A DNA stretch of 64,000 bases from Schizochytrium sp. TIO01 (lineage: Eukaryota; Protista; Bigyra: Labyrinthulomycetes): NCBI GenBank assembly GCA_004764695.1, contig SMSO01000014.1:7058029-7122028 (forward strand), read 5' to 3'. This document shows positions 15,867 to 24,565 of the stretch, piece after piece. The position numbers were made by a program, and so were the translations under genes. Under the pieces are notes generated by a model. The model was not told where the DNA came from. It was given only the letters and a program-made list of their open reading frames with translations, and did no database searches. The stretch's first letter is position 1, and each line of letters starts with the position of its first letter.

Positions 15867-17653
15867 GAAGAGTCAGAACTACAACAGCTCAGAGGAACGA
15901 GTCCGGAACGGTCCATCGCATCTTCTTCCGAAGGTGGTGGTAGGAGCCTACTACTACTGCTATTAAGTACTTCTCCAGAGTCCTGAATTCCGTAGAAACA
16001 ACTAGTAGTTAGCTAGGTACCTACTTCATTTTCTAAAAATCTATTAAAAATTGAATTGACCATTTTACTATTTTCTACATTCATTTGCAACTTCCTTTGT
16101 TTTGAATTTTTAAAATTAAAAAGGTCGAACTTGCGCGGAATGTGCCTCTTCCTCTGAAGTAGGTAAGTAAGTACCTATTCTTCTACCATCGATAATGGAG
16201 CGACTGCAATTCATGGGCGCTGCTCATGCTCGCTCGAGGCGATCGTGCGGTGGCGCTGGCGGAGCTGGTGTAGCACCTTCGTGGATACCTTTGGGAATAT
16301 GCACCTGTGCGCAAAGCGAGCGGATTAGATGGTTGGTACCAAGGCCGCTTTGTTTTGCTGGTTGAAACACATTCACGGCGGAAGAAGGATCCAAGAGCGA
16401 GCCCCAAATCGGGGCCCCAAATCTGACATTGCAGTGAAGAAGAGACATTCTTACCTTTGGATTGTGAAATATAATTTACAAAATAAATAAAATATATCCT
16501 ATCGAGAACAGGGACTCTTCGTGGGAGCCCACACCTGTGGCGAAGACGAGTGTCGAGAACGTTGTAGCAACTACATCATTCCCAGCGCCCCATGAGCAGG
16601 CAGATGGATACCTCGAACTGATTCTCGGCAGATCTTGGCCCACGTGACAAGTCTGTGCATCCTCATGTGCACCCTCGTGTCTGGATTCTCCTGGTATCAA
16701 AACTTGGTGAACGGACACGGTCACCAAGAAGCAGCAGGAATGCTGAACGTGGAGTGTGGATAAGCGAATTGAAATGATGGTGGTGTCGAAGGACCTGGAC
16801 ATCCCGTGTCTCAAGACAAATGATACCTGCTAGCTAGCTAGCTGCTACTTATACAGCTAGCTGCAGACGTGCTAGCAGAGTTGGCGATGATGACGTCAAG
16901 ATTTGCAAAAAGGTTGTACTACGACAATTTGATACTAGCATGTGTCTTCAAATGCAAAAACCCATCATTCTGCGGAGCTCTTTGATTTCCCGGAAGCCAG
17001 GACATCAGCAGCTGCATACGGCATTTGCAAAATTCAGCCTTTCCTGAAACAGGTTTCCTGGCGCAATACGCAACACCAAAACCACTCAACCCCTCGAGTG
17101 CGTGAGTATACCCACTATAATTCTACTAGGCCAACAATTAACGGTCTATCCTGCCCCAAAGCGGCCTAAACAAGTGGTCCATATTTCCTTCCCCAAAGAG
17201 GCCTATCGCAATCTCGAATATCTTTTGCACCCGCGAGTTGATATACTCTTCAATGATGCTGGAGAGTTGGTGTCCTTGACGCGCGCGCCTCGTGATGGCG
17301 TTTCTGGGCGGTGAATCTGCTCCGCCACAGGCACGTGGCCGGCGACCTGAGGTGATAAACGTGAAGCACGCAACTTCCTCTCCACGACTATACCGTTTTG
17401 GGCCCTGCCGGAGTCAGAGCCGCCTCGCGACGCAAGGCCGAGGGCGGCTTTCTTCGAGCGGCGGTGACGTTTTTTCGCCTCCGCCTCTTATTCCCCCTCT
17501 TTCTCTCCTTGGAGATAGATGCGTAGATCGAACAAACGAACATACTCACGACTGACGGCACGAGGGCGGGTTTACGGTAGCTGCGTGTAGCACTCCCCTA
17601 GCGCACCCCGCGGCGGCGGCGGTTCCACCTTAAAGTTGGCGATTTTGGTTTTC

Positions 17654-17761
17654 TCTTAGATTTTAAACTACAAAATTTGCAAAACTTGCATTTCATAGAA
17701 GGAGCTAAGACTCCATCACGGACTAGTTAGACTAACCCGCGACTCAATGAAATGATTTTTT
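17654..17761 (-). ncRNA. Putative omega-RNA (reRNA) scaffold of the Fanzor2; guide predicted to start at about 17654 and read into the flank
   Basis: Minus-strand fold by eye: 8-bp closing stem (17747-17754 with 17689-17696), 12-bp stem with three G-U pairs (17716-17742), and hairpin GGAG-UCUUAG-CUCC (17701-17714) whose loop is complementary to CUAAGA (17654-17659), forming a pseudoknot. Located directly after the Fanzor stop codon. Confidence 0.7.
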
Positions 17762-19618
17762 TTAAATCATGTCCTTGGATAGGTAGCGTAAAAGGATGCC
17801 TCTTGCGGCATGGACATCACGGTCTGCTACATGGTTGCACTTGAGATTAGGGCATTGGAAAACCTTGGATGCCCCGAGTTTATGGTGGAGGGTACCGCAC
17901 TCATTGCATGTTTTTGAAGTGTAGCTCTCTTGGCAAAGAACAAGCTTGCACCACGGGAACATCTCAGCCTTATGAATGAGAGCCTGGCGGAACCCAAAAT
18001 GGGACCAACGACACATCATTCGAACAGACTTCTTGGATATCCGTCGCTCCATCCTCCTGCTCATCTTAGAGGTTTCGAATTTGGGCAGGAGAATAACACG
18101 ATAGTTTTCACAAAGCCAAAGCGCGAGCTTGCGGTGAATCTCAGTGATCTTGTTCTTGATCTTGAGTTGGGCGCGATAGAAGGCGCGCTTCAAGGGGGTG
18201 TTGAAATCGTATGCAGTTTTCTTTTTATTTTCTTGAGCTTTATCAATCCTGCTTTGGATCTTATCAACGCGGCGACAGAGATAGAATATGGTTCTAAAAT
18301 CTTTCCCTGTGCCCCATTCAATGGCGCGGCCATCAGCATCATACATCGTCTGAAACGAGCGAACACCTGGATCTAGAGCAATGACACTGTGGTGCGCCTT
18401 GGGTGCCTGGTCCATTGGACGCTTTTCTTCTTCTCGTAAGAAGCAGAAGTACACATGCCCAAGGCGATTCATTTGCACACGCATGGCGTTCTTAATCTGA
18501 CTGGGGAACTTTTCTTTGCGCGTACGAAACTCTTTTAGAAAGCTGGTGGTCTTTGATTTCTCCGTATTCCAGATACGTGCGTTCACTTCGAAAATCTGTG
18601 ATTCATCACGCTTGGTCCGAAACTTATAAAAAGATTGCTCATGAACTTTCTTTTGTACAGCGAGTTCTTCGTTTTTGGCTCGTCCAGAGTTAAGAGCCTT
18701 GAAGAAATCCAGAATCCCGGAATCACGGATAGCCTGTGGGACCTCGAGAACCCATTCAGGAGCATCATGCCTTTCTTTAGATCGAACGGCTTTCTTTTCT
18801 CCATAGAGGGCACCATACGTTTGGGGATTCCCATCTTCATCTACTAAAACCTGCTTCGTCTTGGAATCCTTTTTGATGCACGCTTCTTGATGCAATTTGA
18901 TGGCTTCTTCCTCGCCCTTCGCCACGTCTCGGTGAAACGCAACGCCAGTATTGTAGGCTCTTCTAGTGACACCAAACCATTTAAGCAACTGTGTACGCTG
19001 ATCTTTAGTAGGGTATACCCTGACCTTTTTGGCACGGACAAGGTCATATTCTTTCTTGATGGTCTTGCGCGCCTTCGTGCGAGCTCGCTTCTTCCTCGCT
19101 GCGTCGTCGCCGTCTATTTTGCGCTGCTCGTTTTCCGTGATGCGATGCCACAAAGACGGTGATGATTCCGAGGAGGTCTTTGGTGAAGGTGTCTGCGTCT
19201 CCGGCATGTGCATCTTGGCCGTGTACCACGAGTTTGACATTTTTTCTTTCGAAAAGGTGTTCCAGGAGGTCGACTGCGATTCGCGCAAGTCGGTCGCGGT
19301 GCATGACCACAACTTGGCCGATTCCGCCGCGGTCACAGGCGTCCAGTAGGGAGCACAGGCCTTGGCGTTTGAAATTGACCCCGCTACCGATGTCTTTGTA
19401 GACGGCGGAAGCATCTGGGTAGGCGCGCTGGAGATCGCCAACCTGGCGTTCGAGGTCCTCCTTTTGCTTGGCCGAGGACACTCTGGCGTAGATAACGGTA
19501 CATCCAGAGCTGCGTTGCTCGCGGCCGGTGGAACCGCAATCAAAGATGCGCTCAACATCGTCGCAGGCGTAGATGCGCTTGCCTCCGGGGAAGCGCGCGC
19601 AGCGCACGCGTCCGCCAT
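17762..19618 (-). CDS. tnpB: Fanzor2 (IS607 TnpB-derived) RNA-guided DNA endonuclease; frame open from 19702, first ATG 19618, alternative ATG 19414
   Basis: HTH/WED region KKVRVYPTKDQRTQLLKWFGVTRRAYN; RuvC-I IALDPGVRSF (D444); LLPKFE with Pro (P540) at the canonical Glu site; relocated Glu in CQESYTSKTC (E592); Zn finger CNEC...CPNLKC; RuvC-III DRDVHAARGI (D629). Numbering follows the 646-aa ORF. Confidence 0.93.
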   Translation of the reverse strand: MADACAARASPEASASTPATMLSASLIAVPPAASNAALDVPLSTPECPRPSKRRTSNARLAISSAPTQMLPPSTKTSVAGSISNAKACAPYWTPVTAAESAKLWSCTATDLRESQSTSWNTFSKEKMSNSWYTAKMHMPETQTPSPKTSSESSPSLWHRITENEQRKIDGDDAARKKRARTKARKTIKKEYDLVRAKKVRVYPTKDQRTQLLKWFGVTRRAYNTGVAFHRDVAKGEEEAIKLHQEACIKKDSKTKQVLVDEDGNPQTYGALYGEKKAVRSKERHDAPEWVLEVPQAIRDSGILDFFKALNSGRAKNEELAVQKKVHEQSFYKFRTKRDESQIFEVNARIWNTEKSKTTSFLKEFRTRKEKFPSQIKNAMRVQMNRLGHVYFCFLREEEKRPMDQAPKAHHSVIALDPGVRSFQTMYDADGRAIEWGTGKDFRTIFYLCRRVDKIQSRIDKAQENKKKTAYDFNTPLKRAFYRAQLKIKNKITEIHRKLALWLCENYRVILLPKFETSKMSRRMERRISKKSVRMMCRWSHFGFRQALIHKAEMFPWCKLVLCQESYTSKTCNECGTLHHKLGASKVFQCPNLKCNHVADRDVHAARGILLRYLSKDMI

Positions 19619-19742
19619 CGGCCCAGCCCCGAAGGGCGCTTGCTGAGACCCCAAACTTCCGGTGAAAGAACTTTGCTGGTTTGTATTCGAGGTTTGCTCC
19701 ACTTGCAGTGTTTGGAGCTTGGCGGTTCCTTGGCCTCCCCAT
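19044..19742 (-). CDS. tnpA: IS607-family serine recombinase/transposase TnpA
   Basis: N-terminal MerR-like HTH (FGVSASALRGWADGGRVRCARFPGGKRIY), catalytic IYARVSSAKQKEDLERQ (S89), DIGSGVNFKRQGL, VVMHRDRLAR, DLLGIITVF..HHGKR. Confidence 0.95.
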   Translation of the reverse strand: MGRPRNRQAPNTASGANLEYKPAKFFHRKFGVSASALRGWADGGRVRCARFPGGKRIYACDDVERIFDCGSTGREQRSSGCTVIYARVSSAKQKEDLERQVGDLQRAYPDASAVYKDIGSGVNFKRQGLCSLLDACDRGGIGQVVVMHRDRLARIAVDLLEHLFERKNVKLVVHGQDAHAGDADTFTKDLLGIITVFVASHHGKRAAQNRRRRRSEEEASSHEGAQDHQERI

Positions 19743-21199
19743 TTTCTTACCTAACCTCCACTTCTTATTAAAGATCTAACTAAGTATAATATATGATTAA
19801 TATGAAACAAGCACATCGAAATATAAGTTATCGAAATTTTAACGGTTTTTGTCATACTGTTCATGAAACGTAGAACAAAGAGAGAGATTTGATATTGGTG
19901 GGTTTTTCCTTTCTCTGCTTTTCTCCTAATTCCGAGCTGCTAGGGCTGCGCTAGGAACTGTTACGGAGGCGATTCCTAGTGCGCAGGTAGATGGCCCCTA
20001 CTGTATCAGGAAAGGTACTAGTAGTAGTAGAGCTTACACTAAAGGGGCTTATGAGAGAGAAGAATTTGAGGCAAGTGCTAGAGTTCCTGATAAGTGACGG
20101 TTAGTGGGTGTTCCTGGGGTATCACCTAGCTAGCCAGTTGGTAAGAAGCACAGTATCTTGGATGCATGCTGGGGCGGGTCAGATTCCGGTGCGAAGGCAG
20201 CGAGGAGCCGTGAACGTGGCACTCGTCGGCCCGTCTCGCTCAGCTTTGGGAGCCATTTTGGGAGCTCGTTCATCGTTCTGGCTAGCCAGAGGGGCATGCA
20301 TGCCACAATCTCCCCATCGATCATCACTAAACCTCTGCAGCAAGCGCAGCACCGTAGTGCCTGCTACGGTTTAGGATAGGAGGGCGAGCATCTACATGCG
20401 CTTGCAATCTGTACCCTCCTGGACTTCGCTACGGAGATGAAGATAGATAGATAATGGAGGCACTTCTAGGGATTAGGATAGGAGGCGCGCAGGCAGCCGG
20501 GAGGGCAGTTAGCTAGCTAGCTAGCTACTAGCTAGTTAGTTTAACTAGTAGTTCAAGGCTGCGAGGATTCGTGGGACCCTCATCGACCAATTGGTGTGTT
20601 TCTTTGGCGAATGGAGTGTCTCACAGATGCGGTTGGGACTGCGATCTCAGCATTCAGTCAGTCAGTCAGTCAGTCCTGCCGTTAGTTTCTCTCGGCTGCC
20701 TGATCGCCGACCCGCCGTTGGAGTCAAGAAGGGCCATCCTTGCTTCCTTCCCTTCGTTCGCTCGCTCTCATCATAACTAATCTCAGCTGTGCTTTCTCTC
20801 TCTCTCCTTTCATAACGCCCAGAGAGAGCTCGCTCTGTCTGAACATGGTATTTCAAAACGAATTGAAAACCAACAAAATCAACAACGACAACAACGAGAA
20901 CAACCACCACAACAACGCATAATACCAGCAGACAGCAACAACAATGTAAACAACGAAAGCCTAACCGTGCGCTGCTGCCGCTACCGAGCTGACCGGGCTT
21001 GCTTGAATGAGTAAAGACGACGAATTGGTCTCACGAATTGGTCTCCACAAGGAGGAGGGCATACGGGCCCTCTTTCTTCCCTTCCCTGCGGTGGTTAGAC
21101 CAGTAGTTGGAGCGCCTCTGCTGTAAAGAGGCGGTGGTTAGTTAGTGAGGCCTTAGAGTACACGGTTAACTTAAGAGAAGAAGAGTAAGAAGAGCAAGG

Positions 21200-22932: not shown

Positions 22933-23140
22933 AGCGTGAGAAGGTTTTTCCTGCCTCATATTAAGGTGGCAAGGGCCTAGCGGAGTCCTAGGCGCGGCGG
23001 TAGGCAGCGGTAGACGGGGCTAAGCGCTCCGTTGAGGCGGATACGGCGCAGCAGAACCGCAACTGCAAAGGCGCTTGAGCAAAGAGCAAGAGCAGCGCAG
23101 AGAGAGAGAGAGAGAGCGCGAGGTGAGGCAGACAAAGAAG

Positions 23141-24565
23141 ATGGCAGACGCAGACAAGAACGACAAGAAGGCGGAGGAGGCAGGCGCCGCCGCCGCCTCG
23201 GCCAAGGGCGACGATGGCACGGAGACCAAGGTGTCCGTGGAGGTGAAGGAAGGCGAAGCGAAGGAAGACAAGAAGGAGGAAGAGAAGGAGACCAAGGAGG
23301 ACGCCATGGAGGTAGACGAGGGCAAGGCCAACGGCAAGAAGGAGACCAAGAAGGCCGCACCCAAGAAGGCCGCCGCCGAGAAGAAGGAGAAGAAGGAGAA
23401 GAAGGAGCCCGCAGAGGGCGAGAGGCGCAGTGGACGCTCCCGCAAGCAGGTGGAGCACTTCGCCCCGCCTGAGCCCTCCACCAAGGAGGAGGACGAATTC
23501 GTCGTGCCCAAGGGCAAGGGCATGGCCATCTCCGACATGGAGAAGATCAGCCACTTCCTTAACAAATTCCCCGTCAGCTCTGAGGAGATCCAGGCCCTTC
23601 ACAAGGCCTTCTACGGACGCAAGGGCAAGCGCGATGCCAAGAAGAACGTTCTTGCCTTCAGCGGACTCGTCTACCCTGACGGCAAGGCCGAGGCTGGCCG
23701 CGACAAGGTCTTCAACACTATCGGCGTATGGAAGATCGACTTTCTCCGCGAGATGATGGACAACTTTGGCGTCGACCGTGGCCAGAAGACCAAGAAGGAG
23801 GAGCTCCTCGACACATTCATTGACTGGCTTGAGAAGCCCACCTACGACCCGGAGATGGCTGTACCCGGAAAGGCCAAGAAGGCCCCCAAGAAGAAGGCTG
23901 CTCCTAAGAAGAAGAAGGCTGCACCCAAGAAGAAGGCCGCCGCAGGAACCAAGCGTAAGAAGTCCGAGGCCACCGAGGGCGACAAGGAGGGAGCCGAGAA
24001 GAAGGACGGCGAGGAGAAGCCCAAGAAGAAGGCTAAGAAGGAGACCACCGAGGGCGACAAGCCCAAGAAGGCTGCCGCCAAGAAGCCCGCTGCTGAGAAG
24101 AAGGAGAAGGCACCCAAGAAGGAGGGCGAGGAGAAGCCCAAGAAGGCTGCCGCCAAGAAGCCCGCCGCCGAGAAGAAGGAGAAGGCACCCAAGAAGGAGG
24201 GCGAGGAGAAGCCCAAGAAGGCTGCCGCCAAGAAGCCCGCCGCTGACAAGAAGGAGAAGTCCCCCAAGAAGCCCGCTGCCGAAAAGAAGGAGGCTGCCGC
24301 CAAGAAGCCTGCTGCCGAGAAGAAGGAGAAGGCACCCAAGAAGCCCGCTGCCGAGAAGAAGGAGGGCGCCGCAGAGAAGAAGTCTAAGAAGAAGCCATCG
24401 GACGAGCTCGTTAAGAAGATCAAGGACCGGCTTAAGTCCATCTTTGAGGAGGGCGACAGGGAGAAGCTCACCGTGGCCGCTGTGAAGAAAACAATTAAGA
24501 AGGACATCCCTGAGTCCGCTGATCACACCGCTCTCATTGGCGAGCTCATGAAGGAGCTCCTCTAA
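23141..24565 (+). CDS. DEK-like chromatin protein with Lys/Ala/Pro-rich repeats
   Basis: DEK core (ALHKAFYGRKGKRDAKKNVLAFSG, SAP-like FLREMMDNFGVDRGQKTKKEELLDTFIDWLEKP) and a DEK_C-like end (PSDELVKKIKDRLKSIFEEGDREKLTVAAVKK). First ATG 23141; strong codon bias. Confidence 0.85.
   Translation: MADADKNDKKAEEAGAAAASAKGDDGTETKVSVEVKEGEAKEDKKEEEKETKEDAMEVDEGKANGKKETKKAAPKKAAAEKKEKKEKKEPAEGERRSGRSRKQVEHFAPPEPSTKEEDEFVVPKGKGMAISDMEKISHFLNKFPVSSEEIQALHKAFYGRKGKRDAKKNVLAFSGLVYPDGKAEAGRDKVFNTIGVWKIDFLREMMDNFGVDRGQKTKKEELLDTFIDWLEKPTYDPEMAVPGKAKKAPKKKAAPKKKKAAPKKKAAAGTKRKKSEATEGDKEGAEKKDGEEKPKKKAKKETTEGDKPKKAAAKKPAAEKKEKAPKKEGEEKPKKAAAKKPAAEKKEKAPKKEGEEKPKKAAAKKPAADKKEKSPKKPAAEKKEAAAKKPAAEKKEKAPKKPAAEKKEGAAEKKSKKKPSDELVKKIKDRLKSIFEEGDREKLTVAAVKKTIKKDIPESADHTALIGELMKELL
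24055..24375 (+). repeat. Coding minisatellite: 75-nt unit (EEKPKKAAAKKPAAEKKEKAPKKEG) plus shorter 36-39-nt units
   Basis: Units start at 24128 and 24203 (75-nt period); shorter KKPAAEKKE units follow. Confidence 0.9.

Follow-up and report, generated by a model that had tools for sequence, protein, structure and literature searches.

A Fanzor2 gene reads through the whole recombinase gene of its IS607-type transposon and most likely owes its N-terminal domain to overprinting

We analysed a 64,000-nucleotide (nt) stretch of the Schizochytrium sp. TIO01 genome (contig SMSO01000014.1; hereafter the window), which carries an intact IS607-type transposon consisting of a serine recombinase gene, tnpA, and, downstream of it on the same strand, a gene for a Fanzor2 nuclease. 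The nuclease frame runs in +1 through the whole of tnpA, and we consider with good confidence that the N-terminal domain of the nuclease most likely arose there by overprinting. An earlier note on this DNA had proposed that the Fanzor2 N-terminus may have originated in this way. Our results support the proposal but show that the feature is not specific to eukaryotic Fanzor2, being shared with bacterial pro-Fanzor TnpBs and viral elements.

The recombinase matched PF00239 (E 7e-20) and NF033518, the IS607 transposase model (143.7 bits against a cut-off of 110), and profile matches to a MerR-type helix-turn-helix (HTH) in its N-terminus were weak. The nuclease matched the TnpB-family profiles PF12323 and PF07282. 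Its RuvC residues D416 (DPG, RuvC-I), E564 (adjoining the zinc finger) and D601 (RuvC-III) align with the ApmFz2 triad D324/E467/D501, and we therefore assign it to the Fanzor2/pro-Fanzor type; on sequence grounds it is likely to be an RNA-guided DNA cutter. The nuclease frame contains no stop between 19750 and 17764-17762, which leaves the entire 699 nt of tnpA open in +1, a little beyond the near-complete coverage first described. The overlap measures 575 nt if counting begins at the first ATG (19618) and 659 nt if it begins at a GTG (19702), both as the earlier note had it, and the two peptides are indeed read from the same bases, with CAPYW at 19357, SAKLWSC at 19321 and NSWY at 19234 in the nuclease frame. 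This tnpA has no +1 stop, whereas synonymous-codon shuffles average 2.5 (fraction as low 0.02, n = 300) and recodings matched for GC content at third codon positions 6.6 (0/300 as low). The overlap had also been described as GC-richer than the rest of the nuclease gene, which it is (58% versus 47%). We rejected this contrast as evidence for the overlap because it is not diagnostic. Although tnpA exceeds the nuclease core in GC content in 63 of 72 overlapped elements, it does so too in 6 of 7 elements in which tnpA lies on the opposite strand and does not overlap.

A set of 298 loci was fetched with nuclease or tnpA alignments; 79 further loci and 3 annotated plasmid regions were used for follow-up analyses only. 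Together with the window, the 298 loci yielded 159 near-full, stop-free tnpA matches, of which 111 remained after removing those more than 85% identical. We grouped these as 83 overlapped, 21 canonical and 7 opposite-strand genes, the last sitting head-to-head with mimivirus-type Fanzor2 genes. The N-terminal motif itself was used for the grouping (one locus, L258, was counted as overlapped for its open frame, without a motif match), and the sequences are related, so counts of elements are not counts of independent events. The overlapped tnpAs had a median of 0 stops in +1 (none in 57, at most 2 in 80), totalling 46 where 294 were expected from codon shuffles and 881 from recoding. Canonical tnpAs had 3-24 each and 318 in total (314 and 286 expected), and opposite-strand tnpAs 17-37 each and 197 in total (194 and 152 expected). 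Because the grouping relied on the motif, we reclassified 103 plus-strand tnpAs by the partner nuclease alone as an independent check. With a DPG-type partner bearing a zinc finger (n = 56), 52 tnpAs lacked any +1 stop from YxRVS onward and all 56 had at most one. The other partner classes were mixed (+1 stop-free in 18/21, 4/11 and 3/15), partly because the pattern missed some partners.

The overlapped set takes in Microcoleus, Limnofasciculus, Geminocystis, Thiocystis, giant-virus contigs and other viral contigs, and the overlap counted from the first +1 ATG was at least 300 nt in 74 of 75 elements (median 593). Among 40 homologous proteins found, 24 were aligned with the query, and most of them have P[FY]W...S..LW.C/P...SW[FY] in common across the region of overlap; the overlapped peptide is thus conserved among homologues, a point on which the earlier proposal had staked itself. 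In the fetched loci the motif was seen only with pro-Fanzor/Fanzor2 nucleases, no motif-only search of large protein libraries having been made. These observations confirm that the overlap is clade-wide and common to bacterial pro-Fanzor TnpBs, viral elements and this Fanzor2. The remark that bacterial IS607 genes usually overlap only briefly holds for canonical elements (7 nt between tnpA and tnpB in L379) but not for cyanobacterial and other bacterial pro-Fanzor elements, whose overlaps are long. The closest relatives of the element (L159, L161, L164, L165 and L171) come from genome bins labelled bacterial; their contigs are very short and may be mis-binned eukaryotic or viral DNA.

Both frames are under selection, and selection on the +1 frame acts at the amino-acid level. 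In 93% of the 83 overlapped genes the codon at tnpA Leu132/133 (19346) ends in G, which gives Trp in +1, and neighbouring third bases fix +1 Pro (83%), Leu (90%), Pro (80%) and Ser (75-83%). Leu/Val codons that precede a G end in G at 171 of 183 positions across three Trp sites, versus 86 of 644 elsewhere in the same genes; the corresponding counts in non-overlapped genes are 2/10 and 70/259. Between overlapped genes less than 60% identical, fourfold-degenerate sites showed an identity of 0.53 across the motif region, of 0.38 and 0.35 on either side of it and of 0.30 across the HTH (0.275 expected); non-overlapped genes gave 0.26-0.29. In 82 of 83 elements, the real +1 frame scored higher than every one of 100 random recodings of that element's TnpA. 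The check for dual-frame constraint suggested in the earlier note is therefore positive by stop depletion, Trp-site codons, fourfold sites and recodings alike. The sites were chosen after the alignment had been viewed and the genes are related, so p-values for selection overstate independence. We dropped a possible remnant of the motif that opposite-strand tnpAs seemed to carry in +1, as its scores fell within the random-recoding range; the protein-level motif excess of these genes over canonical tnpAs was marginal (p = 0.035) and was not used as evidence.

Of the two frames, that of the recombinase is the older. The recombinase profile (PF00239) spans the overlap, and canonical tnpAs lack the second frame and branch apart from all others (support 99 in a tree with 3 rows left out), which makes frame 0 old and frame +1 new. 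Several elements show decay of tnpA under an intact nuclease frame. Remnants of tnpA with 1-2 stops lie in the -1 frame under an intact motif in L006, L013, L015 and L079 (ghost scores 43-81; shuffles below 4), and in L002, L007, L026 and L120 the motif persists over an old frame that holds 14-29 stops, a faint ghost being visible in L002 only. A resolvase trace of the kind that the earlier note had suggested seeking was recovered in the first four elements, and faintly in L002, but not under mimivirus-type N-termini. In L380, from plasmid alpha of Nostoc PCC 7120, tnpA carries a stop and the nuclease frame is open; in L378, tnpA is intact and the nuclease is decayed, with 5 stops in +1. RefSeq starts the L380 nuclease (L380:2602-3777) after tnpA, omitting the overlapped domain, and P0035 (Cylindrospermum, 409 amino acids (aa)) appears similarly cut.

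The overlapped pattern had been likened to Fanzor2 N-terminal extensions, and the comparison bears this out by mapping it to the N-terminal domain of ApmFz2 (9B0L). An AlphaFold2 model of the nuclease, built on a 25-row alignment, has residues 1-88 disordered (predicted local distance difference test below 50), residues 89-140 partly ordered and a helix at 156-179. Its best structural match is 9B0L (Foldseek E 2e-18), model residues 88..618 aligning to chain residues 53..518 (Z 21.9, root-mean-square deviation 5.2, 423 residues), and TnpB structures align with the model only from residues 191-193. According to the accessible text of PMC11832414, residues 53-130 of ApmFz2 form an N-terminal domain not seen in other TnpB structures, within which RuvC-R (65-91) completes the RuvC fold and Asn82/Ser83 contact the ωRNA pseudoknot. 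Eight mimivirus-type Fanzor2s, taken as a profile, align with ApmFz2 from residue 37, with KISKWIP...TNSWY at 64-85, and HHalign matched six mimivirus-type N-termini to the overlapped motif (89.7%, E 2e-6). From these two alignments we infer that Asn82/Ser83 of ApmFz2 correspond to N129/S130 here, which are read from the tnpA codons for KLVV. Judged by the model, the domain proper is only about residues 88-140 (19357-19200), which are conserved and predicted to be partly ordered. In two tnpA-less nucleases (L037:2390-2501 and L051:2390-2504), the N-terminus is about 38 residues long and starts at a P[FW]W motif, a natural minimal version.

Several points weigh against an overprinted origin of the Fanzor2 domain as a whole, and some of them favour an alternative in which the overlap is real and selected but its peptide is not homologous to the ApmFz2 N-terminal domain, the mimivirus-type elements being a sister lineage that gained the domain separately. 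The overlapped-motif profile (A4) gave no match to 9B0L at E up to 10 and no significant PDB match, so the ApmFz2 link runs through intermediates and a predicted model, for which the structural aligner reports ranges only. When freed mimivirus-type motifs were scored against the overlapped profile, four of six N-termini were weak or signal-free on their own: the scores of L142, L150 and L113 were reached by 2-3 of 200 shuffles, and L132 gave no signal. No recombinase ghost was detectable in the -1 frame of mimivirus-type N-termini. Opposite-strand tnpAs nest inside the overlapped clade in free trees (all quick trees), but a tree placing them outside it was 9.9 log-likelihood units better and was not rejected (approximately unbiased (AU) test, p = 0.61), and we dropped the nesting as an established result. 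The same caution applies to the reliance of the 83/21/7 grouping on the motif, to the relatedness of the sequences and the post hoc choice of sites, and to the nuclease start codon, which is predicted from sequence. Separate gain nevertheless has to contend with L129, which combines an opposite-strand tnpA with a full PFW...SKQIFLP...NWF motif scoring 25 bits (shuffle maximum 7) and is the best intermediate between the layouts; L140 scored 11 bits, and both exceed all 200 shuffles. The HHalign match, the placement of K..W.P...NSW[FY] ahead of the HTH at the same position in overlapped and mimivirus-type groups, and the alignment of model residue 88 to 9B0L residue 53 also tell against it. We regard separate gain as unlikely, and favour overprinting, after which the mimivirus-type layout may have descended from the overlapped one. 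A head-to-head tnpA was observed at the mimivirus-type loci L129, L140, L142, L150, L300, L303 and L305-L309, most of which keep a shortened K..W.P...NSWF motif.

We then considered how the nuclease would be started. Of 76 overlapped elements, 38 have a +1 ATG within the 25 nt that follow the tnpA ATG, versus 5 of 23 others (about 20% expected), whereas only 2 of the 76 have a +2 ATG there. The median distance of the nuclease ATG from the tnpA ATG in overlapped elements is 13 nt; several have an ATGxATG arrangement, and purine-rich stretches precede the internal ATG in some bacterial-type elements. This copy has in-frame ATGs at 19618, 19558, 19414 and 19240, the first three upstream of the conserved motif. 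The first is 124 nt downstream of the tnpA ATG, which itself has A at -3 and G at +4, and the nuclease would therefore have to be started here by leaky scanning or from a shorter transcript. We do not equate the 19618 ATG with the bacterial ATGs at +64 to +73, a Met one codon away being found in 14% of genes. The order of the two ATGs in this copy, together with the OrfAB fusions that IS3-type elements form by frameshifting (accessible text of PMC5771124), would suit a nuclease made as a TnpA-Fanzor fusion by programmed +1 frameshifting or splicing, with no start of its own in the second frame. We consider this very improbable, because the +1 frame reaches nearly to the beginning of tnpA without a stop and has its own ATG close by, no tnpA-nuclease fusion was seen in the examined loci (longer proteins were not searched), and a truncated near-copy has lost the tnpA start yet has a new ATG at 19570.

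This near-copy was found in contigs from public runs. In 6 of 8 runs examined (X1, X4, X6, X8, X14 and X19), a near-copy of the element is cut at 19660, where the contig end is joined to foreign sequence. It lacks the 19618 ATG as well, and a tnpA stop at codon 167 is merely E125D in its nuclease. P0001, a transcript-derived protein, has the 19570-type start and the same substitutions as the truncated near-copy, and its open reading frame (ORF) begins inside the tnpA remnant. Depth steps near 19660-19680 in six of the eight runs (X1, X4, X6, X8, X10 and X19) had raised the possibility of an internal promoter in tnpA, which we rejected because the foreign-joined contig end at 19660 indicates a 5'-truncated copy. 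The truncated near-copy (19660-17670) dominates contig depth in most runs, the type of which is only guessed, and may represent a Fanzor2 that is highly expressed or domesticated. Because genes cannot be ranked by contig depth, we draw no expression claim from these runs.

The idea that the +1 frame is open only as a side effect of codon usage in tnpA, with the nuclease starting near the tnpA stop as in ordinary IS607 elements, fits the 7-nt overlap of L379, the RefSeq start in Nostoc PCC 7120 and the median 37 of 93 bits of motif score that the TnpA protein alone forces, but it is largely refuted and barely credible, given that depletion of stops, fixation of Trp-site codons and conservation of synonymous sites are confined to elements with a DPG-type partner, that the motif outlives tnpA decay and that the frame is closed where the nuclease has decayed (L378).

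We propose that, in the ancestor of pro-Fanzor TnpBs, the tnpB frame was extended upstream through tnpA. One stretch of DNA would then encode TnpA in frame 0, and a second start near the 5' end would yield a nuclease about 190 residues longer, this start being reached by leaky or adjacent-AUG scanning in eukaryotes and their viruses and through a second ribosome-binding site in bacteria. The first 88 or so extra residues would be a predicted disordered spacer over which the frame is merely kept open, and residues ~88-140 a RuvC-R-like element that may contact the ωRNA via N129/S130, by homology to Asn82/Ser83 of ApmFz2. Selection fixes third codon positions of tnpA and thereby preserves the Trp, Pro, Leu and Ser of the motif, as shown above; the nuclease would retain the motif once tnpA dies or, as in mimivirus-type elements, sits on the other strand. 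A wider proposal is that overprinting made the pro-Fanzor lineage and pre-adapted it to eukaryotes, which would explain the crossing of this clade into giant viruses and eukaryotes and hence Fanzors. The nuclease start would have moved to within a few bases of the transposase start, making a two-gene element readable from one capped mRNA, and overprinting would have supplied an RNA-gripping domain and a basic stretch resembling a nuclear localization signal (NLS). This proposal is tentative, and we lean somewhat against it.

The element is an ordinary member of the known IS607-type family (Table 1). Transposons of the IS607 family end at a GG dinucleotide, without terminal inverted repeats or target-site duplications. 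The ends of this element were located only approximately, from contig joints and loose ends, contigs of other copies extending to ~17672 on the right side. The region beyond the nuclease stop folds stably (z -3.24; 0/200 shuffles equally stable). The helix and basic stretch of the nuclease would occupy a thumb- or NLS-like position relative to the 9B0L thumb. No second copy of the element was found in the window. Its flanks there are repeat-rich, which, together with a 93% match to a protein of the MMETSP transcript collection, points to a eukaryotic host. One contig joins 17633 to 19876 with 24 letters between and resembles an unoccupied insertion site, which suggests that the insertion may be recent and polymorphic. 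Elsewhere in the window, 23075-24565 (plus strand) holds a 496-aa Lys/Glu/Ala-rich repetitive ORF with long antisense ORFs and without a Pfam match, which we take, as an impression only, to resemble a host chromatin protein.

Table 1 Features of the element (positions in the window)
Feature	Position	Strand	Remarks
tnpA, IS607 serine recombinase, 232 aa, intact	19044..19742	minus	MerR-type HTH and catalytic domain, YARVSS; ancestral frame
Fanzor2 ORF from first ATG, 618 aa	17762..19618	minus	stop 17764-17762; frame open from 19750
Poorly conserved, predicted disordered leader, nuclease residues 1-87	19358..19618	minus	over tnpA HTH, linker and first half of catalytic domain; frame stop-free
Dual-coded core, motif P[FY]W...S..LW.P/C...NSW[FY]	19200..19357	minus	over tnpA LLD...VVV.H.DRL.R...KLVV segment
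Predicted helix and basic stretch of nuclease	19044..19199	minus	over tnpA E-helix and tail; model helix H156-179
Candidate ωRNA / right-end region, boundaries loose	17640..17800	minus	3' of nuclease stop
AT-rich left end, approximate	19743..19860	minus	contigs of other copies diverge from window at ~19841-19859

Overprinting would supply an origin for the single domain that distinguishes Fanzor2 from TnpB. The overlap is a rare, old, same-strand dual-coding region of ~600 nt outside viruses, whose new frame is now a structural part of an enzyme, and its stages are still living: full overlap, dead tnpA under a live nuclease, and full separation. Because automated gene prediction can truncate pro-Fanzor nucleases at the tnpA stop (L380 being an example), tool mining may test incomplete proteins, and recoding tnpA or the nuclease in overlapped elements will damage the other gene. 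Annotations of the chloroviruses NY-2A and AR158 reportedly list resolvase ORFs inside transposase ORFs, and overlap coordinates may thus have been noted earlier without an overprinting interpretation. Our search found no literature linking IS607, TnpB and overprinting, with figures, ISfinder, Repbase and subscription papers outside its scope. The accessible text of IS607 papers (including PMC10711439, PMC10530073, PMC3627910, PMC10691335, PMC13565253, PMC10432273, PMC6188088, PMC7019647, PMC9956272 and PMC3673617) states only that the ORFs overlap, and that of PMC11832414 calls the N-terminal domain unique to Fanzor2 without stating an origin. As far as the literature was searched, this dual-coding architecture and an origin of the Fanzor2 N-terminal domain by overprinting are undescribed, and both are well supported. 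They also make testable why a narrow TnpB clade seeded eukaryotic Fanzors, an open question in the accessible text of PMC10711439.

Compared with known systems, the element resembles ApmFz2 and other Fanzor2s of IS607-like elements in its DPG RuvC-I, the Glu by the zinc finger, its N-terminal domain and its IS607 serine recombinase. It differs from ApmFz2 in that the N-terminal domain is encoded within tnpA in +1, whereas the mimivirus-like loci examined have tnpA head-to-head on the other strand. With the cyanobacterial pro-Fanzor (TnpB2) IS607 elements (PMC10711439; ISArma1, PMC3673617) it shares the RuvC signature and tnpA type, and loci from Microcoleus, Moorena, Geminocystis and Chromatiaceae have the same overlap, although the accessible text of those two accounts mentions neither a long overlap nor an N-terminal domain. 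Canonical IS607 elements (H. pylori IS607, IS1535 and ISC1926) likewise carry tnpA followed by tnpB, which 'often overlap' in the accessible text of PMC6188088, but their overlap is a few bases (7 nt in L379), their tnpAs contain 3-24 +1 stops, and they lack the N-terminal extension. Overprinted genes of viruses, as described in the accessible text of PMC8227390 and PMC3744397, also give rise to a new, often disordered protein in a shifted frame under dual constraint. Unlike them, the new frame here is an N-terminal extension, and a structural part, of a neighbouring old enzyme; the transposon spans bacteria, viruses and eukaryotes, and its new frame can uncouple from the gene in which it is hosted.

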